A DNA stretch of 64,000 nt from an uncultured Gammaproteobacteria bacterium. Its GTDB lineage: Bacteria; Patescibacteriota; Patescibacteriia; Magasanikbacterales; UBA922. A program made the translations under genes and the position numbers. Each line of letters starts with the position of its first letter. Position 1 is the stretch's first letter. Shown piece after piece: positions 27,421 through 59,768 of the stretch. The notes beneath the pieces were generated by a model. The model was not told where the DNA came from, did not search any database, and saw nothing but the letters and a program-made list of their open reading frames with translations. Location: assembly GCA_964394405.1 (NCBI GenBank), contig CAYMVY010000001.1, positions 166,546-230,545 of the forward strand, given 5' to 3'.

Positions 27421-27528
27421 ACCTTTCGGTGATCTATTTTTCAGAATTGAGTCAGACGGGCCACGCGAAATGCGCAGCCCGCCCGTTCATCTACGACCCC
27501 CGAATTAGGGTCGCAGGTTCGACATGGT

Positions 27529-28491
27529 TCATTTATCGGCAGTCGTCGGCAGCTTGATTTTACTAAACCACGGACAACGCACAAGGAAAGATTCCTCATG
27601 CTCAGCCCAGGTACAGTCATCGAACGCCGGGTCCCCTTCGTCAATACGACCATCACAGTCGTTGTCGCCCCCATCCTGGAAGTCGTACCCTTCTCGATGC
27701 GGCCCAACGAGTATGGACTCACCAGTCTGCATGAGAGAGATCCCGTAGGGACAAACAAGGCGGTCCAAGAAGAGAAGCCTCTCCTCATGAAACTCACAGA
27801 GCACAGCCGCGTGCCCCAGCCTAGGGTCATCAGCGCAGTCGCAAGTTGTCTGACCAAGTGCAGGCAGACCATCGCATGCAGGATAGCCATCGCGGTCGCA
27901 GTCGTTGCCAGGCAGAGAATAGCACTCAACAAAGAAGAGGGTAGCCGGGGAATTCAGTGTGGAGTCGTTAGCTTCCTCTTCTTGACCGACGGTACCCAAA
28001 CCGAGAGCTCCATCAACCACCCCATCGCAGTTGTCACCTTTCCAGTCTGTAGCGCCAGGATGGTTGAGATTACTCCCATCCATCTTGAACGCACCGCTAT
28101 CAGACCCAACAGTGGGGCGTTCACCATCGCTCGGATTGTCATCGCAGTCGCCGCCACGAAGTTCGTTGACCTGGAAGACGGGATTCAGTGATCCGACGCA
28201 GGGCGCCGTCTCGCAGAACCCATCTCCATCGTCGTCGTAGTTGTCGGCGGTCATGTCTGCCATGAGCCCGCCGTCAGAGCCAGAAGCGCCGATCGGAACT
28301 CTGCCATGACGATCGACGAAGAGGTGGCACATGCCCGTGCTAGGGATGCAGTAGTGCCCGTTGTCACAGTCCGAGTTCACGGAACAGCTCTTCGCCTCTC
28401 CACCAGACTGACGCTCGATGAGCAGGTAGACGGCGGTCGCGAGGAGGACAGCGGCGAGCGAGAGGAGAGCGATCAGAGAAAACTTCTTCAT
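27529..28491 (-). CDS. secreted Cys/Asp-rich repeat protein (MopE-like putative metal-binding motifs), GC-rich island gene
   Basis: Signal peptide MKKFSLIALLSLAAVLLA; repeated DGDGFCE, DCDRDGYPACDG, DNDCDGRIDEGD motifs; SD aagga 7 nt upstream; local GC about 58%. Confidence 0.55.
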   Translation of the reverse strand: MKKFSLIALLSLAAVLLATAVYLLIERQSGGEAKSCSVNSDCDNGHYCIPSTGMCHLFVDRHGRVPIGASGSDGGLMADMTADNYDDDGDGFCETAPCVGSLNPVFQVNELRGGDCDDNPSDGERPTVGSDSGAFKMDGSNLNHPGATDWKGDNCDGVVDGALGLGTVGQEEEANDSTLNSPATLFFVECYSLPGNDCDRDGYPACDGLPALGQTTCDCADDPRLGHAAVLCEFHEERLLFLDRLVCPYGISLMQTGESILVGPHREGYDFQDGGDNDCDGRIDEGDPAFDDCTWAEHEESFLVRCPWFSKIKLPTTADK

Positions 28492-28734
28492 CTCATTTTC
28501 CTTTTCTGTGTGTGTTTACCCCACTTCAAGCCGGGGTGCATAGCATTTCACATACCAAATTTGATATGCACAATGCTACGCACCCGCATATAAACCATGT
28601 CGAATTGTAATGAACTATTTTATTTTCTTTTTCGGATTTCGTCCTAATTTTCAGGACTCATCAGTGCCGATTTAATCGACAGATCCTTTGGAGCCAGCTC
28701 GACCTAGTGTCGAGTCTGGCTCCGGTTGAGAACG

Positions 28735-29577
28735 TTACTGCTGCGGAGGCAGGGCAAACCACCAGGTGATCTGATAGGTGTTGCCCGACTCAACGTCTGT
28801 CACGTTGATGCTGACGGACATTTGGATCTCGGCAGCCTGAGCTTCAGTAATATCGGGGAGATACACCCCAGCCAAAATTTCCATTTCGGCGCTCGGCGGA
28901 ACGGTATACCCGCCCATCTCGCAGGTTGCGAAGACTGTGTGCTCGAACGTCGTCTCATCGCACGAGCGTGGAAAGAAAGCGGCACGTCCCACATCTCCGA
29001 GATACAGCGAGACCTGATCATCGTCTGCATCACCCTGAGTGGGAATATTGTGACCCTGCACGATGACGTGATTGATCACGACTCCGTATCCGCAATTGTC
29101 TTCGATCGCGACCCTCATCTCAACCCACATATTCGCAATACCCGGAGCGGTGTTGATCATCAGATCACTGGTCCATGTCGTTTCAATGAGCGAGCTGATG
29201 TACGCGCCACGCTGAGGGTAGTCGGTGTACGGCTCGCACAAGTCTTCCTCAGCCTGCCGATCGCCGAGCGGCAAGCTGGTGCCGTCCGGACACACGAGGT
29301 TCGCTGTACCGTCACCATTGTCGACGAGAGTACAACTCTCTCCATCCTCACCATCCTGCCCCGGGATTCCCTGCGGACCCTGGGGCCCCATGGCACCGTC
29401 GGTACCATCTTCCCCATCGATCCCGCTCTTGCCCGGGTCTCCTCGGTCCCCCTTGTCACCCTTCTCACCCGCCGGACCCTGGGGGCCCGGTTCTCCCTCG
29501 ACGACGTACGTATCGCACGCGAAGAGGAAGAGGTTGAAGAACGAGACGAGAACGACGAGAAAACGAATCGTGGCCAT
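28735..29577 (-). CDS. secreted collagen-like (Gly-X-Y) repeat protein, GC-rich island gene
   Basis: Signal peptide then GEPGPQGPAGEKGDKGDRGDPGKSGIDGEDGTDGAMGPQGPQGIPGQDGEDG; SD ggaggtg upstream. Confidence 0.55.
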   Translation of the reverse strand: MATIRFLVVLVSFFNLFLFACDTYVVEGEPGPQGPAGEKGDKGDRGDPGKSGIDGEDGTDGAMGPQGPQGIPGQDGEDGESCTLVDNGDGTANLVCPDGTSLPLGDRQAEEDLCEPYTDYPQRGAYISSLIETTWTSDLMINTAPGIANMWVEMRVAIEDNCGYGVVINHVIVQGHNIPTQGDADDDQVSLYLGDVGRAAFFPRSCDETTFEHTVFATCEMGGYTVPPSAEMEILAGVYLPDITEAQAAEIQMSVSINVTDVESGNTYQITWWFALPPQQ

Positions 29578-29928
29578 GATACACCTCCATAGGCGTAGTT
29601 GATCCCTTCAGCCGGCCAGGCCAAAAGGATAGTTGTGTATGGTACTAGTCAACGTGACTACCCATTGGTGTGCCAAGCATTTAGCAGACCAATATGTAGT
29701 CACGTTAGTAAAAATCAATTGGAAAGGACTATTATTTTAACGAGCTAGTATAACATATATGCGCAAATTTGTCAAGGTAATTGGGTAATATTTTGGCTAA
29801 TTTTAGCAAAATTTGCTTAACTCAGTATACTATTTTTCTTCTGCTCAATGTTATATACCCCAGTCTTCATGTTTTCCCCAACCTATCCCCCACCAAAAGC
29901 CCTAATTTGTATACAATATTCTACACAT

Positions 29929-29969
29929 TGTGGATAATTATGTGGAAAAGTACGCACATATGTGGATAA
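29929..29969. promoter_or_regulatory. DnaA-box cluster distant from dnaA: tgtggataa (x2, perfect reverse complement of TTATCCACA) plus tgtggaaaa
   Basis: Boxes at 29929-29937, 29941-29949, 29961-29969, all same orientation; flanked by palindromic ttttggctaaNtttagcaaaat copies at about 29786 and 30022. Confidence 0.45.
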
Positions 29970-30066
29970 ACTATGCTTGTATACACTATTATATACAAAC
30001 AAAAAAAGAAAAAACAAGATAATTTTGGCTAAAATTAGCAAAATAAAAACAGTTTTGGTCAAATCC

Positions 30067-30095
30067 TTGACGATATGTTCAAAAAATGCTATACT
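30067..30095 (+). promoter_or_regulatory. strong sigma-70 promoter TTGACG-17-TGcTATACT
   Basis: Near-consensus -35, 17-nt spacer, extended -10 TG, read directly. Confidence 0.5.
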
Positions 30096-30101
30096 GTATT
30101 T

Positions 30102-30428
30102 GTTGATCTTTGACATATTGAGATTCTCCCCCTAGTGGGAATTGGAATCTCCTACACCGATTGCACTACTCACCGTCCGGCCAAGGCCGGATAAACACCA
30201 ACATCAAAAACAAACACGGTCTGAATGTGGCACCTCGCCCTTTCAACACCCTTTGAGTGGTCAATCAGGTACTATTTTCCAGGGAATATCTGGCGTTTCC
30301 CAAGCGATCTCAGTCGTTATCAACGAAGACGATTGAGACAGCTTGGGGAAAACCGAACCCTAGAAAACTACCGGCTTTCCAGCCATAAAATATTATTTCA
30401 TGGGTCTCGGACAGCCGGTTTTTATATT
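30102..30428 (+). ncRNA. candidate structured non-coding RNA (about 330 nt) downstream of the promoter, unknown family
   Basis: No convincing ORF (only 64 and 84 aa overlapping frames). Stable hairpins: gagattc…gaatctc, tccggcc-aa-ggccgga, 10-bp stem tctcagtcgt…acgattgaga. GC higher than flanks. Ends at a weak hairpin + T5 near 30419. Confidence 0.3.
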
Positions 30429-30534
30429 TACAATAAAAAATTTGCTTTCTTTATTCTTTTTGGTATAATTTGTGCATAATTGATTTTTCTTGAAATACTC
30501 CTCGCAAGCCCCCTCTCTCATAAGCACCCATCCT

Positions 30535-38409: not shown

Positions 38410-38440
38410 AAAAATCCCTCCGAGCTGGAGGGATTTTTTT
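38410..38440. terminator. bidirectional terminator (atccctccgagctggagggat + T7)
   Basis: 8-bp stem; between PBP1A and dnaN ends. Confidence 0.75.
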
Positions 38441-39566
38441 ACTGTCTGATCGGCATCACAATATACTTGAAAGTTTCATCTCCATCTACCGTAAACAAAC
38501 ACGGAGAGTCAGGAGAATTGATATGCATCTGTGCTTCCTCTTTTTCGATCTGCTGTAGACCATCCAATACATACCGGTGATTGAGTAGTACGGTCATTTT
38601 TTCCCCGACCACCTCGCCCTCCACGTATGACGAATGTTCACCCGTTTGTGCACTTACCGAGGTTACACCGATTTGTTTTTTCTCAGGATCTAATTCAAAA
38701 GAAATCGAATTAACTCCAGCAATAGTAAATAAACTCGCTGCTTTTATTTTATTACTAATCTCTGAAACAGAAAAAGTCGCTGTGTTTTTGAAAGTAGTGG
38801 GTATAATCTGTGTATAATCTGGATAGCGTCCTTCAATAAGTCGACTAACCATTTCAAATTTATCATACCGAATTGCAATTTGATTTTGACTCACGGTCAC
38901 TCGTACGTTTTCCTCCCCCTCATGTTGTCGTCCGAGTTGTATGAGACGTGCCATTTCATAAGCCACTCTCCCAGGCACAATACAGGTTACCTCAGCATCT
39001 TCGCCTTGTGCGATAGGAACCCGCGCTTCAGAAAGTCGGTACGAGTCAGTTGCTGCCATTAGCAAACCTTCGTAACGCTCGCTTTTGAATCTACAAAAAA
39101 TACCAGAAAACTCAGGACGTATTTCATTTTTTGCACAGGAAATTACCACTTTCCCAATCTGATCTTTGAATGTTTGAGCGTGTATCAAGTAGGTGTGTCC
39201 TTCCTCAATCGCAGGAATTACTGGGTACTCTTCTGCAGGGAATCCTTTTATTTTTGTCTGAGATCCGGAAGAGTGGATAACGAGCTCGTTTGACTCAAGT
39301 GTGAGCTCCACCTGATCATTCGTGAGAAGTCGCACGTATTCAGTCAGCGTACGAGCAGGGACAGTAAAAGTTCCTGGTTCATCCACCTTTGCTCGTATGT
39401 GTGTTTTGACTGAGACTTCAAGATTGGTAGCACTTATCTCTACTCCAGACTCATGTGCACGTATAAGCACATTCTGTAGTATAGGGAGATTTACATGTTT
39501 ACTTGCAAATGCATTTACAATCTCTAGACTATATAATAAATTTTCACGTGTGGATGTTAGTTTCAT
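38439..39566 (-). CDS. dnaN: DNA polymerase III beta sliding clamp
   Basis: 375 aa, three-domain clamp; N-terminus MKLTSTRENLLYSLEIV typical. Confidence 0.9.
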   Translation of the reverse strand: MKLTSTRENLLYSLEIVNAFASKHVNLPILQNVLIRAHESGVEISATNLEVSVKTHIRAKVDEPGTFTVPARTLTEYVRLLTNDQVELTLESNELVIHSSGSQTKIKGFPAEEYPVIPAIEEGHTYLIHAQTFKDQIGKVVISCAKNEIRPEFSGIFCRFKSERYEGLLMAATDSYRLSEARVPIAQGEDAEVTCIVPGRVAYEMARLIQLGRQHEGEENVRVTVSQNQIAIRYDKFEMVSRLIEGRYPDYTQIIPTTFKNTATFSVSEISNKIKAASLFTIAGVNSISFELDPEKKQIGVTSVSAQTGEHSSYVEGEVVGEKMTVLLNHRYVLDGLQQIEKEEAQMHINSPDSPCLFTVDGDETFKYIVMPIRQ

Positions 39567-39813
39567 ATGTATTTCTCTTTTTATATTATAATCTAGTAGA
39601 TAATAATAGAGGCTGTGAATGGAGGGGATAAATCGTTTTTATTGCTAACTGTAGATATTTTTTTGATTTTATTGTGTGCACAAGTCAGGGATACTTTTTG
39701 AACAGAGGGTGAATAGGTTTTGGTATGTGTGTGGGGTGTGTGCAAAACTTTTAGTTAGTACCAGTTTATTAACCCACTTAAATACAGGTATTGGGCTAAG
39801 TTATGCACAGAAA

Positions 39814-41202: not shown

Positions 41203-41282
41203 AGTTTGTGTTTATGAGGGGAATTGTAACACAGTTTATAAATCCAAAAAATGCTCTAAATTAAGCGAAAAGTGTATATTAT

Positions 41283-41310
41283 GTGGATTACCTGTGGATG
41301 GTGTGGATAA
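41283..41310. promoter_or_regulatory. three tandem DnaA boxes upstream of dnaA (tgtggatta, tgtggatgg, tgtggataa)
   Basis: Perfect and 1-2-mismatch reverse-complement TTATCCACA boxes read directly; candidate oriC / dnaA autoregulation site. Confidence 0.55.
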
Positions 41311-41455
41311 TACATAGAAAACAAGCATACGCGAAAACAAAATAGTTGACAATACATACTTTTTCATGTTTACTATCACCCGTCTCTTGCGAACACTGCA
41401 CGCGCAGTTATGTAGGCGACGCAACCACCGTCAACAGCTTCAGGAGGAATTCCGC

Positions 41456-41746
41456 ATGATGGATCTGAGTATCGCGCTCAAGGGTCGTGCTCACAAGAGC
41501 AAGAAGCCGAAGAAGCAGGTCGTCAAGGGCATGCTCGAGGTCATCGAGACCAATGCCAGGGGGCGTGGCGGTAGGCCGCGCTGCCAGGTGGTCACGGCCC
41601 GGAACACCTCGGCCAACCTCATGGACGTCACCCTCACGGGAGACGGCAGCCTGCTGATGACGGCCGTGCTCAAGCGGGGCGAGCAGCGCTCGTTCAGCGT
41701 GCCCCCGGGCACCGTCGCGAAGAAGATCGACATCATCGCGTTCTAA
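41456..41746 (+). CDS. small basic protein encoded by a GC-rich island in the dnaA-rpmH interval, hypothetical
   Basis: 96 aa from ATGATG with strong SD caggagg 9 nt upstream; about 62% GC; followed by an 11-bp-stem terminator. Confidence 0.45.
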   Translation: MMDLSIALKGRAHKSKKPKKQVVKGMLEVIETNARGRGGRPRCQVVTARNTSANLMDVTLTGDGSLLMTAVLKRGEQRSFSVPPGTVAKKIDIIAF

Positions 41747-41761
41747 CGCGCGTACGCTAGA

Positions 41762-41806
41762 GTACCGTCTCGCACCATCCCACACGGGCTCTGGTGCGAG
41801 ACTTTC
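41762..41806 (+). terminator. terminator hairpin gtctcgcacca…tggtgcgagac + tttcaaatt
   Basis: 11-bp perfect stem. Confidence 0.6.
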
Positions 41807-41833
41807 AAATTCACTAAAATTAGAGATTTTTTC

Positions 41834-41862
41834 TTGACAAAACACAAAAAATAGTGTATAGT
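41834..41862 (+). promoter_or_regulatory. sigma-70 promoter TTGACA-17-TGTATAGT for rpmH
   Basis: Consensus -35, 17-nt spacer, extended -10, 36 nt upstream of rpmH ATG. Confidence 0.5.
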
Positions 41863-41897
41863 ATCTATATTATATAACTTCTTAAGGAGCAATCTGT

Positions 41898-42074
41898 ATG
41901 CCAAAACGCAAGTATCAACCAAAAAAACGAAAACGAGCAAAAACCCATGGGTTTTTGAAAAAAATGAGAACAAAAAATGGTCGCGATGTATTGAAACGTC
42001 GTCGTGATAAGGGACGAAAGAAACTTACCGTAAGTAGTGAACGAAAAGGTAAACGAACACGAAAGACAAGATAA
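41898..42074 (+). CDS. rpmH: 50S ribosomal protein L34 (with short basic C-terminal extension); not in ORF track (<60 aa)
   Basis: [45 protein letters not shown] matches L34 consensus; SD aaggag upstream. Confidence 0.85.
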
Positions 42075-42933: not shown

Positions 42934-44007
42934 TTAAGCTATGTGGAAATAGCAAACATCTCCATCTTTCACTTCATAATCTTTTCCTACCAATTGCATC
43001 TTTCCTTTTTCTTTCACCCCTGGCCAGCCACCCAGCGCTACAAAATCTGCAACACTCGCAACATCAGCTTTCACATATCCTTTGACAAAATCAGTATGGA
43101 TTACACCGGCAGCTTCAGGTCCTAGTGTCCCACGAGTTACGGTCCATGCGCGAGTTTCTTGTTCTCCGGAAGTAAAATAGGTAATGAGATTGAGTAATTT
43201 GTATCCAGCTACAATCAATCGGTCAAGCCCAGTCTCTTTCATTCCCAAATCTTCCATAAACATTTTCGCATCCTCAGAAGAAAGTTCTGCAATTTCTGAT
43301 TCTATCTTTGCACTGATTTCAATATATGGAGTGGTACCAAAAATTGGGGAGAAATCTGCCTTTCCGATCATGTCTTCTTTTACATTTACTACATACATCA
43401 TTGGTTTCATGGTAAGTAAATGCAAATCGCGCACGATAAGTTTTTCTTCTTCATTGAATTCCAACTCTCGAGTTGCTTTTCCAGCTTCGAGTTGCGCATT
43501 GAGTTTCTCTAGTACTGCAATTTCGATTTCTTTTCCTTTTGCAGCCGCACCTTTTGCATCACGTTTTGTTTTGTCTAATCGTTTTGAGACAGTTGCGAGG
43601 TCTGCGAGTGCAAGTTCAAGATTGATTACATCGCTATCATCTTTCGGGTCCACTTTTCCTGCCACATGAATAATATTTCCATCTTCAAATGCACGAACCA
43701 CTTGTACAATCGCATCAGCTTCACGAATGTGTGTGAGAAATTTATTTCCCAATCCTTCTCCTTCTGAAGCACCTTTTACAATTCCCGCAATGTCAACGAA
43801 TTGGATCGCAGTCGGAATGATTTTTCCAGATTTTGAAGTAGTGGCCAGTGGTGCGAGTCGTGCGTCTGGAACCTCAACAACACCAACATTGGGTTCAATG
43901 GTACAAAAAGGGTAGTTTGCAGCCTCAGCCAGCTTACTTTTGGTGAGTGCATTGAAGAGTGTTGATTTTCCTACATTAGGGAGTCCGACAATTCCGATAG
44001 ATAACAT
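42934..44007 (-). CDS. ychF: ribosome-binding ATPase YchF (Obg-family GTPase)
   Basis: [19 protein letters not shown]1 motif, TGS C-terminal domain. Confidence 0.9.
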
Positions 44008-44148
44008 AGCAACAAGTTAGTTTTGTACTGCGGAGTGTAACAGAAGAATGATAAAAAATCAACCGTTAAAATAAAAAAGAAAGAGGGGTGGTCTTTCAAA
44101 AGTTGACGTGGAAGGGGGTCTCTGCGTGCGCAGGGACCCCCTTCTTCC

Positions 44149-44826
44149 TCATGCAGCCCCATCGTCATTTCCGCCTCGGTAGAGACGAAGATGTGGTGGA
44201 GGGGGCGATCGGGGGTTGTGTCGGGAATGATAACCTGTCCCATATTTGCCGCCATGAATGCAGCGTAGAGGTGCCCTATGTGGAGGTGGAATTTGAGCAG
44301 GTTGTGCTAGCGGCTGAGCAATCGGGGCATCTGCATTCGACACCTCACTCATTACAGACCCGAACAATTCTTCACGCAAGATAGAGAGCACTTCAAGTCT
44401 GAAGAAGAAGTGTCCGTTTTCATGTGAAGTCGATCGGATTGCCCACTCCAGTTCGTTGCGGACTCTCGGTGAAGAGAGGATCGCGTCAACGGGGTATTTT
44501 CCGATAGTTGTTCGGATGGGGGCAATGAGGTCAAGGGTTGATCGGAAGTTTACCCTTTGAAACTCAGTCCAGTCGACCGCGATTCGCACGTGGACACGAG
44601 CACCATCTCGAGACGATACGCAGTAGGTCTGCTTATCCGAGTTGTAGAAGTGGAAGTCGTGCCTCTCGAAGTGCTGCCAGGGCCATCGGAGGTGGATTCC
44701 AGGGGCAAGTCCGCGGAAATGATTGTGAGTCTTTCGGACCGCAATCGTACCTGCAGGAACCATGATGATCAGACGTGCGGCCAGAAAGAGGACGCACAGA
44801 CACAGTACAATGATACCGTACAACAT
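44149..44826 (-). CDS. SPFH/band-7-like domain protein with Pro-rich tail, GC-rich island gene
   Basis: N-terminal TM then VPAGTIAVRKTHNHFRGLAPGIHLRWPW… resembling SPFH; SD aagga upstream of Met at 44826; perfect 11-bp terminator hairpin at 44106-44144. Confidence 0.4.
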   Translation of the reverse strand: MLYGIIVLCLCVLFLAARLIIMVPAGTIAVRKTHNHFRGLAPGIHLRWPWQHFERHDFHFYNSDKQTYCVSSRDGARVHVRIAVDWTEFQRVNFRSTLDLIAPIRTTIGKYPVDAILSSPRVRNELEWAIRSTSHENGHFFFRLEVLSILREELFGSVMSEVSNADAPIAQPLAQPAQIPPPHRAPLRCIHGGKYGTGYHSRHNPRSPPPPHLRLYRGGNDDGAA

Positions 44827-46119: not shown

Positions 46120-46297
46120 AATTGTAAATATAAATTTACAATAGATAATAATTAAGCATAAATATAGTATATATTAGTAAATATAAATTTACAAGATAGT
46201 TCTAAAACAAAATAAACACACATTATTTAACCTTGACAAAACAGGTGTTTTGTGATACAATTTTTGGTCCTCACAACCAAGGACACTGGAGAGTCTC

Positions 46298-46765
46298 ATG
46301 TTTACGATCATTCTGTCGTTCCTTCTCCTCGTTACTCTCGTGACCGCCATCTTCCTCGCGAAGGAACTCGTGAAGAAGTTCACCTTCCTCAAGGGGTACA
46401 CAGACGGTAACAAAAACTGTATCCGTTGGCACTACCGAGGGAGCGATGTGGAGGGGCATAAACCGGGCATGTACACGATCGTGCTCCACAACACCAGGGG
46501 CGGTGAATTCACGGCCGTGGCCGCGTTTGAACTCCTGCTCCCGTTCGGGATCAAGGGGGTGGACCAGTTCGGACTCATCAAGAGTAGAGGGGCTGGTGTG
46601 GTCGCGTTCTCGACGTATCTGGGCAAGGGGGAGTGTGAATTCATTTTCCTCCTCAACGGGGCAAAGCCCGAACAGGTCGAGCGCTCGATCGACGTGACCG
46701 GCGAGATCACCCCAACCCAGACATATCCGCCGCACTGGTGGCAGCGACTCGGATTCTGGGGCTGA
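46298..46765 (+). CDS. N-terminally anchored hypothetical protein, GC-rich island gene
   Basis: 155 aa; TM helix MFTIILSFLLLVTLVTAIFLA; about 60% GC; followed by 10-bp-stem hairpin at 46811-46838; antisense ORF also open. Confidence 0.35.
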   Translation: MFTIILSFLLLVTLVTAIFLAKELVKKFTFLKGYTDGNKNCIRWHYRGSDVEGHKPGMYTIVLHNTRGGEFTAVAAFELLLPFGIKGVDQFGLIKSRGAGVVAFSTYLGKGECEFIFLLNGAKPEQVERSIDVTGEITPTQTYPPHWWQRLGFWG

Positions 46766-47075
46766 ACGCCTGAGCGCATCGCGCGCTCCTTCCAATGGCA
46801 CGGAAGTAAAGCCTGTACAAACTGCGGAGTTCTGCCAAAGAACTCCGCCCAAACCAAAAGTACATCACACACGTGGTGTCTTTTTGTTTTACCCCCCTCC
46901 TGTCCTCCCCCTTGTGAAGAGGGGGGAACCTACTTACGCAAGGATGACACAAAGTAATGCTTGTGTTACTATGAATAATACTATGGATGGATTTTTATCA
47001 ATTCTTATTCTTATCGTTGGTACAGTAGGAGCTGTGCTTATTGCTTTTTTCTTTGGTAAGATTGGGAAGAAATAA

Positions 47076-53453: not shown

Positions 53454-53909
53454 ATGAGGGTCAAGGTGTTTGAGATGATTGTGACATTCGGGACTGTGCC
53501 GGAAGTGCCGGCAGGTCATAGAAAGTACAAGCGTCACGACGAGACGCTCGTGGTGCATTCGTACGAGAGAAAGTCGGATGAATGGGATGACCCGGAACTC
53601 ATCTACCGATACCTCACTCGTCACGAGCTCACTCGGGCCGATACGGTGTATGTCTACGTCGGAGACGTGGAGCAGGCATGCGCAACGCGAGAGCAATCAT
53701 GGCTTCTGGTTCGCCGGATCCTCAAGGACCTCAATGGTCGCAGGAAAGAGGTTGCGGTGGTGACCAGCTTCGAAGGACTCGATCCCGAAGTTCGGGAAAA
53801 GGAGAATCGCGAAGCAGAACAACTCGGAGTTCGGGTGGTCGAACTGAAGGGCGTGTCGGCGGAGAAGTTCTTCGCAGACATTGTTCGGAAGTATCGACCG
53901 GCAGCCTGA
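53454..53909 (+). CDS. hypothetical acidic protein, GC-rich island gene
   Basis: 151 aa spanning the island (about 57% GC); frame choice uncertain because antisense ORFs of about 100 aa also exist. Confidence 0.3.
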   Translation: MRVKVFEMIVTFGTVPEVPAGHRKYKRHDETLVVHSYERKSDEWDDPELIYRYLTRHELTRADTVYVYVGDVEQACATREQSWLLVRRILKDLNGRRKEVAVVTSFEGLDPEVREKENREAEQLGVRVVELKGVSAEKFFADIVRKYRPAA

Positions 53910-59312: not shown

Positions 59313-59678
59313 TCATGGTCTCGAGACATGGCTTGCCAGAGGGTCAGAGTCGAGGAAGCGCCAGTCGTGGCAGTGGTTCTGGTGGTCGCCATAGACAGCA
59401 ACGGGCCGATCGCGTACGAACTCCTTCATCCGAGGGCAGTCGGTGAACCAATACACCTCGTGGATGTCGAAGTTCGTGATGAAGATGGTGCGCACGCCGG
59501 GGAAGAATGGGTATCCGATGGCAGGTCGCCGACTCAGTTCATCCAGAGCAACATGTTGCTGCTCTGCACTCACGATGAGTAGACTCCCGAACACCGTGAT
59601 CAGGGAGATCATCCAGATGATGGCCTTATTTCGAAGCCTCCTGAGTTTTGTTTGGGCGATGTCGATGTGTACAGTCAT
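59313..59678 (-). CDS. signal-anchored hypothetical protein, GC-rich island gene
   Basis: MTVHIDIAQTKLRRLRNKAIIWMISLITVFGSLLIV… with SD gagg upstream; antisense ORF 59280..59582 also open. Confidence 0.3.
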   Translation of the reverse strand: MTVHIDIAQTKLRRLRNKAIIWMISLITVFGSLLIVSAEQQHVALDELSRRPAIGYPFFPGVRTIFITNFDIHEVYWFTDCPRMKEFVRDRPVAVYGDHQNHCHDWRFLDSDPLASHVSRP

Positions 59679-59768
59679 GGTGGACCTCTGTGGTACAAAA
59701 GAGCGAACACTAGTATCTAGTATTCTCAAAAAGGTTGAATGTTGTCAAGAAAATTTAAATAGACAAGT

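Follow-up and report, generated by a model that had tools for sequence, protein, structure and literature searches.

The question raised by this locus is how a small open reading frame (ORF) rich in guanine and cytosine (GC) came to lie between dnaA and rpmH, and what kind of element it forms there. The stretch of DNA analyzed here (the window; 64,000 nucleotides, mean GC content 41.6%) comes from a Candidatus Magasanikbacteria bacterium, a member of the Candidate Phyla Radiation with a genome of less than 1 Mb. In the window, dnaA and rpmH diverge from an interval that holds a 96-codon, GC-rich ORF with expression signals of its own (Table 1); all the features described in the original prediction were confirmed. 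The original prediction took this ORF for a foreign gene inserted as a cassette near the replication origin, where it could affect initiation. We favor another reading, to which we assign a probability of about 0.6: the ORF belongs to a lineage-specific, moron-like accessory transcription unit whose conserved slot lies between the DnaA boxes and rpmH and whose coding content is hypervariable.

The comparison set comprised 76 further loci from Magasanikbacteria, each with a divergent rpmH upstream of dnaA. In 65 of these the interval measures 156 to 586 bp, is AT-rich or of ordinary GC content, and contains no GC-rich ORF; in the empty loci that were sampled, a lone rpmH promoter comes within ∼50 to 100 bp after a trio of DnaA boxes. 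Filled slots occur in 11 species: the window, L002, L003, L004, L082, L083, L086, L087, L088, L091/L092, and L093 (L numbers denote individual loci). An interval of ∼690 to 730 bp with a GC-rich core was found only in genomes whose DnaA is at least ∼88% identical to that of the window, and L086 has a shorter interval of 534 bp. Two members of the same clade are empty, namely L084 (DnaA 87% identical) and L089/L090 (92%), with intervals of 193 and 206 bp and one promoter; they are also the most basal in a tree of dnaA nucleotide sequences built by the unweighted pair group method with arithmetic mean. dnaA nucleotide identity among the 13 clade genomes is 76 to 84%. The comparison supports the GC-rich unit being an insertion relative to the ancestral state, and the simplest history would be that the ancestor of the eleven filled genomes gained it once. 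The original prediction therefore stands insofar as most of the loci compared are empty and the unit appears inserted, but not in treating the insertion as particular to this genome, since the slot is filled in 11 species with matching expression signals. Relatives carrying the same ORF at uniform GC had been named as evidence against that prediction; relatives do have an ORF there, but it too is GC-rich.

The edges of the slot are far better conserved than its interior. In a four-way alignment with pairwise sliding identities, 80 to 96% identity extends over the 5′ end of dnaA, the box trio, the putative cassette promoter P1 with the first ∼12 nt of the leader, and the segment from the outer stem of the terminator through the rpmH promoter P2 to rpmH (the spacer carrying P2 is 80 to 96% identical among clade members). 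Within the unit, identity is 6 to 45% for the window versus L086 and for L002 versus L093. These are two of the three closest dnaA pairs, yet their slot contents differ. P1 has a perfect −35 element; the string TTGACAA...TTTACTAT is invariant or nearly so in 11 of 11 filled loci, where GTTTACTAT is likewise conserved, and the GC-rich segment starts at ∼41,378, just past GTTTACTAT. We infer from the sequence that P1 acts as a promoter, and it is probably the ancestral rpmH promoter or its duplicate. The sole promoter of the empty locus L089 (TTGACA-17-TATACT) contains the P1-type string TTTACTAT, and the −10 element of L084 resembles that of P2; both would fit a duplication of the rpmH promoter when the slot formed, or a loss through recombination between P1 and P2.

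Downstream of P1, the first ∼12 nt of the leader (CACCCGTCTCTT) are conserved across the ORF classes described below. A leader hairpin is present in the minimum-free-energy fold, but its energy is no better than that of shuffled sequences (z = −0.33), and the hairpin seen by eye at this position differs from relative to relative. A ribosome-binding site, an ATG, and an ORF are present in each of the 11 filled slots; in every filled relative, a GGAG/GAGG motif lies 6 to 9 nt ahead of the ATG. The terminator-like hairpin (−30.3 kcal/mol, z = −5.2, with 0 of 200 shuffles as stable) forms the right boundary of the variable segment; the T-tract that follows it, TTTCAAATT, is weak. A hairpin lies at the matching place in relatives, where the stem sequence GTCTCGC is common to classes A, B, C, and D and the stems of L083, L088, and L093 differ in sequence. 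P2 (TTGACA-17-TATAGT) matches the consensus at 11 of 12 positions. Thus the perfect Shine-Dalgarno sequence, the terminator, and the rpmH promoter of the original prediction are all in place, the hairpin of the terminator ending at 41,802.

The ORF itself appears to be a real gene. Its GC content of 64.2% (not 62%, as first given; z ∼4 for 288-nt windows) is distributed over the codon positions as 0.57/0.45/0.91, whereas third-position GC (GC3) is 0.22 to 0.39 in dnaA, dnaN, rpmH, and ychF; such a distribution is typical of a true coding frame in GC-rich DNA. The description of the ORF as self-contained and compositionally deviant holds. Between L003 and L004, which carry related ORFs, the differences fall 10/5/18 on the codon positions of the sense frame, and the ratio of nonsynonymous to synonymous substitution rates (dN/dS) is 0.16; purifying selection is seen in this one class (class B). 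Given the GC3 pattern, the ribosome-binding site, the distribution of differences and the low dN/dS, we conclude that the plus-strand ORF is a genuine protein-coding gene, which would be translated.

The predicted protein is small and basic (isoelectric point (pI) 10.8), its N-terminal 25 residues being rich in lysine and arginine, and no signal peptide or hydrophobic segment was seen in it by inspection. An AlphaFold2 model built from a four-sequence alignment is all-beta with eight strands (predicted local distance difference test (pLDDT) 73.8, predicted template modeling score 0.62); the single-sequence model is poor (pLDDT 49). Foldseek searches of PDB and BFVD with the model returned no match at E ≤ 1e-3, only generic beta-sandwich and cupin folds at E ≥ 0.003 and template modeling scores of at most 0.6. 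Sequence searches of Pfam, PHROG, NCBIfam, PADLOC, and PDB gave nothing significant, and a word-indexed search of 5.8 billion clusters gave no match. An exhaustive phmmer search of 1.84 billion representative proteins yielded only three weak matches, all of them multi-stretch matches to long repeat proteins; in one of these, P0001, a beta-sandwich-like repeat resembles residues 44 to 87, which we did not take as homology. A profile of six slot proteins, run against the 5.8 billion clusters, matched only three clade members, and neither tblastn of phages and plasmids nor scans of IMG/VR gave a match. The search for homologs called for by the original prediction thus found no donor lineage and no homolog outside the clade in ∼15 billion proteins, phages, plasmids, and viral contigs. 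Our best guess from the model and the alleles is a small nucleic-acid-binding protein, because the product is predicted to be a small basic beta-sandwich, or a conflict or recognition protein, because it is hypervariable.

How variable the slot is became clear from grouping its proteins with phmmer and jackhmmer against ∼5,400 six-frame decoy ORFs. Class A comprises the window, L002, and L082; class B, L003 and L004; class C, L083 and L087; and class D, L088, L091, and L093; the 61-aa ORF of L086 is unmatched, and the other slot ORFs encode 91 to 104 aa. The window protein has a 51 to 54% identical ortholog in L002 and a weaker one in L082. Attempts to merge the classes with jackhmmer or hhalign failed: hhalign probabilities between classes were below 10%, the best pair being A and D at E = 0.006, which we do not count as a link, and neither a six-frame ORF database nor tblastn gave any cross-frame or nucleotide similarity between classes. 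Length and basic charge are common to the classes, with a pI of 9.6 to 11.2 in all eleven proteins.

Class membership is at odds with the dnaA tree. Its deepest split has members of class A, of class C, and of class D on either side; the ORFs of L003 and L004 are 88% identical in nucleotide sequence with a proportion of synonymous differences (pS) of 0.32, versus 82% and 0.74 for dnaA; and immediately ahead of P1, L087 carries the haplotype seen in L083 and L091 instead of that of its dnaA relatives. The similarity between L003 and L004 and the haplotype of L087 suggest that slots may have moved between lineages by recombination at the conserved flanks. The dN/dS of the window and L002 ORFs is 0.74. 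L004 has the same DnaA (100% identity) as a Logan contig that appears to carry a class B protein differing at 6 of 94 residues (P0125/P0132); if this contig link, which we presume, is right, the pair hints at very fast protein change on short timescales.

We therefore propose the following history, again at the level of a model. The autonomous unit would consist of P1, leader, ribosome-binding site, ORF, and hairpin terminator, wedged between the box trio, which overlaps the likely dnaA promoter, and P2, which would now serve rpmH. The slot may have arisen a single time, in the common ancestor of a Candidatus Magasanikbacteria clade at the genus level, probably together with duplication of the rpmH promoter, and would have retained its expression signals since. 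Divergence or exchange of the coding part would have been rapid enough to leave at least four classes that no longer align, and the disregard of the classes for the dnaA tree would reflect recombination through the conserved flanks, diversifying selection, or both. A position beside the origin would also give the gene a high dosage.

Several observations weigh against this proposal. Homology between the classes is not demonstrated, and independent fillings of the slot are possible. With synonymous sites saturated, rapid in situ divergence of a weakly constrained gene could explain the classes without any exchange, and the two processes cannot be separated here. The dnaA tree is nearly star-like (at the identities given above), by which both the incongruence and the single gain are weakly resolved. 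The −10 element of P1 is noncanonical (TTTACT at a spacing of 17 nt, or TACTAT at 19 nt), and a consensus promoter scan did not call P1. The fold model comes from four sequences and nothing specific matched it, which makes the functional guess weak. Nor does the proposal account for the persistently high GC3.

This last point bears most directly on the alternatives. Between the window and L002, synonymous sites are saturated in dnaA, dnaN, rnpA, and yidD (pS 0.71–0.79), and the GC3 of the slot ORF is nevertheless 0.91 in the window and 0.94 in L002 (0.53–0.94 over the ten full-length alleles). A two-state decay to the core-gene GC3 of ∼0.33, after at least 0.7 synonymous substitutions per site per lineage, would predict a GC3 of ∼0.5 or lower. 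Because the flanking synonymous sites are saturated between these genomes, the high GC3 cannot be read as that of a recent import not yet ameliorated. Two possibilities follow: the GC-richness is maintained locally, whether through selection (on the mRNA or on the gene) or through GC-biased gene conversion at a recombining locus, or the alleles are refreshed from an unsampled GC-rich pool. High GC3 is not peculiar to this slot, being seen also at the ychF-yidD junction of relatives and in further orphan ORFs of the window.

The first possibility leads to a stronger version of our proposal, which we put forward tentatively and regard as unlikely. In it, the origin-side slot would be a high-dosage expression site kept for hypervariable small basic beta-sandwich proteins under diversifying or frequency-dependent selection, with recombination between species, and GC3 would be actively maintained; the protein would be, for example, a determinant of phage-host conflict or of self-recognition, and its GC3 would be upheld by mRNA selection or by GC-biased gene conversion at a recombination hotspot, not by a donor.

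The second possibility is that cassettes are imported repeatedly. The unsampled GC-rich pool behind them could be, for instance, a virus or plasmid associated with these bacteria, or DNA of a host acquired through competence. Such import would explain the unrelated classes and the sustained GC together, and the abrupt breaks of identity at leader and terminator, with classes that cannot be aligned, speak for it; the window and L002 alleles, 49% diverged in protein and both with GC3 above 0.9, suggest divergence in a GC-rich background. Two observations on other genomes point the same way. The distant locus L072 (DnaA 61% identical) has a 1090-bp rpmH-dnaA interval with an unrelated 152-aa ORF on the dnaA strand (GC3 0.89); GC-rich ORFs may have landed in this interval repeatedly. 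The ychF-yidD junction, ∼100 bp long in the window, is a second variable slot in relatives, with unrelated GC-rich ORFs of 110 to 237 aa and GC3 of 0.64 to 0.68 (L083 1459–2172, L084 2195–2854, L091 874–1206, and L002 2210–3180). However, no member of such a pool turned up in any collection searched, there is no recombinase among the scanned ORFs of the window and no att-like or attC-like repeat, and replacing the coding part while keeping leader and terminator needs homology that unrelated cassettes lack. Moreover, the length and basic pI common to all classes fit a single diverged family better. On this balance we think repeated import possible but unlikely.

A single recent insertion near the origin of this genome from a high-GC donor, with a possible effect on initiation, is improbable. 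Composition speaks for it, the ORF having a GC3 typical of a ∼70% GC genome in a window of 41.6% GC, as do the missing unit in most Magasanikbacteria and the other GC-rich islands of the window, which encode proteins that look horizontally acquired (collagen-repeat and cysteine-rich repeat proteins). Against these stand the 11 filled species, whose dnaA genes are only 76 to 84% identical and whose promoter, leader, and terminator are common, the intact box trio and dnaA spacing, and the want of a donor homolog in the databases searched. Nor did we find a gene for mobility: the domain scan for an integrase took in 29 protein-coding ORFs of the window, and no integrase, transposase, recombinase, or reverse transcriptase appeared among the scanned ORFs, a set covering 28 of the window's 30 ORFs with a length of 250 aa or more. 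Comparison of the GC-rich islands of the window by blastn and tblastx revealed no common repeat or mobile element, and no silent donor copy of the cassette or its signals exists elsewhere in the window. The foreign origin claimed in the original prediction thus has the composition of the gene in its favor, but neither a donor in the databases searched nor a mobility gene among the scanned ORFs of the window.

Does the unit have a part in replication? Three tandem DnaA boxes were predicted and are present on the minus strand at 41,282 to 41,310, the last of them a perfect TTATCCACA. Across the whole window, 30 matches with at most one mismatch were counted, versus 18.7 ± 4.2 expected, and the evidence for the boxes is therefore the tightness of the trio and its conservation in relatives, not their number. 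The trio is kept in 13 of 13 clade loci, filled and empty alike, and a trio-like pattern occurs in 43 of the 76 Magasanikbacteria intervals; metagenome scans with the trio as a DNA pattern found nothing. It is probably the dnaA operator, part of oriC, or both, and it bounds the slot on the left as a conserved flank. Between the dnaA start and the trio lie ∼80 to 100 bp, whether the genome is filled or empty, including a minus-strand promoter-like site that overlaps the boxes; the GC-rich unit sits on the rpmH side and leaves the box cluster uninterrupted. Because this spacing is alike in both kinds of genome, there is no sign of interference with initiation, and nothing indicates that the unit disturbs initiation or belongs to its machinery; relatives live with or without it. 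The predicted effect on initiation consequently found no support.

An active role at the origin, in which P1 transcription through the GC-rich block, or the basic protein itself, would modulate DnaA-dependent unwinding or the expression of dnaA and rpmH, appears highly improbable. It would parallel mioC and gidA transcription at the Escherichia coli oriC, or small DnaA regulators; the unit adjoins the conserved trio within the flat minimum of the GC skew, is retained in 11 species, and encodes basic products that could bind DNA. But two clade members and all other Magasanikbacteria lack it, while the trio is conserved; a regulator of a conserved machine would not be expected to diverge beyond recognition where DnaA remains 85 to 97% identical; and L086 seems to hold a decayed version (its 61-aa ORF, at 44–51% GC). 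Barely credible is the idea that the real feature is an antisense 145-aa ORF, a structured RNA or an assembly chimera, since, although the Logan annotation calls the antisense ORF and GC-rich DNA has long ORFs in several frames, the antisense frame shows no third-position GC signal (0.78/0.45/0.54 by codon position) and no family match and was judged spurious, no Rfam family matches (the sole hit, CssrB, scores 21.9 bits against a gathering threshold of 76), and the slot sequence is identical in two independent assemblies (the window and the Logan contig L001), with an architecture that recurs across the filled relatives.

The antisense call does have a consequence. Gene callers make no call in the slot of L082, L086, and L092 and call a wrong-strand ORF in L087 and L093. 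Since automatic annotation picks either the antisense ORF or no ORF at all, protein databases contain almost nothing of the family, with four sense-strand members catalogued among ∼15 billion proteins.

Phage morons, described in lambdoid phages, are autonomous units of promoter, ORF, and terminator that lie between genes adjacent in related genomes. The slot unit, for which P1 is the putative promoter, shares with them a factor-independent terminator-like hairpin (the 11-bp stem, though with its weak T-tract), a single small ORF, a base composition unlike that of its neighbors, and a location between genes that are adjacent in relatives, dnaA and rpmH being a short distance apart in the 65 empty loci and in L084 and L089/L090. 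Unlike a moron, it sits in a bacterial chromosome beside dnaA and not in a prophage (the neighbors are dnaA, dnaN, rpmH, rnpA, yidD, and ychF, with no phage gene and no PHROG match), and the slot persists across species while its ORF turns over. It would resemble a moron in architecture, as an accessory gene expressed apart from its neighbors, but is not one in the strict sense. Most horizontally acquired bacterial genes described are AT-richer than their host, and the window unit differs from them in being GC-richer. Flexible genomic islets or hotspots between core genes are also known, including the variable oriC environ of staphylococci. Like these, the slot shows presence, absence, and allelic variation at a fixed core-gene position near the origin, with conserved flanks that allow homologous recombination; unlike them, it holds one small gene in ∼0.45 kb, shows neither an att site nor, among the scanned ORFs, a recombinase, falls within the dnaA-rpmH spacer itself, and belongs to a Candidate Phyla Radiation host.

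Other comparisons are less close. As in an integron cassette, a small orphan ORF of variable content precedes an inverted repeat; here, however, there is no array and the cassette has a putative promoter of its own. We found no attC core sites (RYYYAAC or GTTRRRY) around the hairpin (41,747–41,830), whose stem is followed by TTTCAAATTCAC, and no IntI integrase domain in the 29 scanned ORFs. Unlike the target of a diversity-generating retroelement, the slot ORF varies over its whole length and not in a 3′ variable region, and the window contains neither a reverse-transcriptase domain nor a second copy of any part of the ORF. With mioC and gidA, which flank oriC in E. coli, the unit shares the position of a transcription unit directly beside a DnaA-box cluster; it differs in having no sequence or protein relation to them, in being dispensable in close relatives, and in its hypervariable product. 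Our literature search found no description of the dnaA-rpmH slot. There is no clear precedent in the literature searched, and the general kind is a familiar one, a variable islet between core genes.

Table 1. Coordinates of the dnaA-rpmH slot, its signals and the neighboring genes in the window
Feature	Position	Strand	Basis or detail
dnaN	38439-39566	-	gene order
dnaA	39814-41202	-	Pfam Bac_DnaA, Bac_DnaA_C, DnaA_N; divergent from the slot
dnaA-rpmH interval	41203-41897		695 bp, between divergent genes
DnaA box 1	41282-41290	-	TAATCCACA, 1 mismatch
DnaA box 2	41293-41301	-	CCATCCACA, 2 mismatches
DnaA box 3	41302-41310	-	TTATCCACA, perfect
Putative cassette promoter P1	41346-41377	+	perfect -35 TTGACA 41346-41351; -10 region GTTTACTAT 41368-41376
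5′ leader hairpin	41381-41421	+	directly after the predicted transcription start
Antisense 145-codon ORF (judged spurious)	41408-41845 (= L001 3418-3855)	-	automatic call on Logan contig
Shine-Dalgarno AGGAGG	41442-41447	+	8 nt before ATG
96-codon ORF, class A	41456-41746	+	codon-position GC and ribosome-binding site
Terminator-like hairpin	41767-41777 / 41792-41802	+	perfect 11-bp stem, 14-nt loop, then TTTCAAATT
Spacer, rpmH promoter P2, ribosome-binding site	41803-41897	+	TTCAAATTCACTAAAATTAGAG; P2 41834-41862; AAGGAG 41884-41889
rpmH (ribosomal protein L34)	41898-42074	+	Pfam Ribosomal_L34; followed by rnpA and yidD
rnpA, then yidD	yidD end 42829	+	Pfam Ribonuclease_P, YidD
ychF	42934-44007	-	gene order

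Coordinates and Pfam domains bear out the divergent arrangement of dnaA and rpmH-rnpA-yidD, and the 5′ end of dnaA is conserved among relatives together with its upstream leader. Cumulative GC skew, proposed as a check on the origin, drops to ∼39 kb, runs flat to ∼47 kb and rises afterward; this flat minimum (∼38–47 kb) spans the dnaA region and is consistent with a replication origin somewhere near dnaA. The dnaA-dnaN spacer (39,567–39,813) has degenerate DnaA boxes and AT-rich runs as well, and the unwinding element may sit there, as in bipartite origins. A second tight trio of boxes (TTATCCACA, TTTTCCACA, TTATCCACA) lies on the minus strand at 29,929 to 29,969, ∼11 kb from dnaA, inside an AT-rich intergenic region of ∼890 bp (29,600–30,490) beside the largest GC-rich island; this trio may serve to titrate DnaA, act as a regulatory site, or represent a second origin-like element. 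The reversed ychF after yidD, which the original prediction had pointed out, is present but not private to this genome, being found also in the clade relatives whose retrieved DNA extends that far, and no YidC domain was found among the scanned ORFs of the window. The window DnaA is 58 to 92% identical to those of 80 species-representative genomes. Many of these records are titled Magasanikbacteria, Patescibacteria, or Parcubacteria, and many others uncultured Gammaproteobacteria; dozens of records labeled uncultured Gammaproteobacteria bacterium (L002, L003, L011, and others) have a DnaA and gene order of the Magasanikbacteria type, and their labels look wrong.

The GC-rich ORFs of the window genome are mostly orphans. 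A second unit of the same build occupies 46,233 to 46,880, with a promoter at 46,233 to 46,261 (TTGACA-17-TACAAT with a TG extension, sharing CTTGACAAAACA with P2), a ribosome-binding site, an orphan ORF at 46,298 to 46,765 (155 aa, GC3 0.77, N-terminal transmembrane segment), and a hairpin at ∼46,825 to 46,849. Further GC-rich orphan ORFs without a family match lie at 44,063 to 44,823, 53,454 to 53,909, and 59,313 to 59,729 (240, 151, and 138 aa; GC3 0.53–0.66), the first with a faint SPFH/Band 7-like N terminus. The 2.2-kb island at 27,457 to 29,634 (57% GC) encodes two secreted-looking proteins, one of 320 aa that is cysteine-rich, with DCDxDG-type repeats and weak MopE/Lustrin matches, and one of 280 aa with a collagen triple-helix repeat (Pfam E = 1e-10); both look like horizontally acquired surface proteins. 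At ∼30,065 to 30,400, a near-consensus promoter (TTGACG...TATACT) precedes ∼300 nt of GC-richer, ORF-less sequence with hairpins such as CCGGCCAAGGCCGG. This segment had no Rfam match even at E ≤ 1 and no transfer-messenger RNA by ARAGORN, and it may be an unannotated structured RNA.

If our proposal is true, this clade has between dnaA and rpmH not a damaged origin but a stable site that expresses an orphan gene very different between species, and the DnaA-box region tolerates a transcribed insertion of ∼0.5 kb on its rpmH side. The locus also presents a natural system of 11 alleles and two empty sites in which to ask why accessory genes of a 41% GC genome keep a GC3 of 0.5 to 0.9, the candidate answers being selection, biased gene conversion, and repeated import. 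It exemplifies an annotation trap as well, since calling the longer antisense ORF, or nothing, renders a family almost invisible in protein databases. Should the tentative reading of an actively maintained hypervariable slot be true, the interval would represent a kind of contingency locus near the origin that has not been described before, and a low-GC bacterium would offer a clean natural example of GC content maintained locally. With its hypervariability and basic charge, the product is a candidate conflict or nucleic-acid-binding factor in a little-characterized group of organisms.

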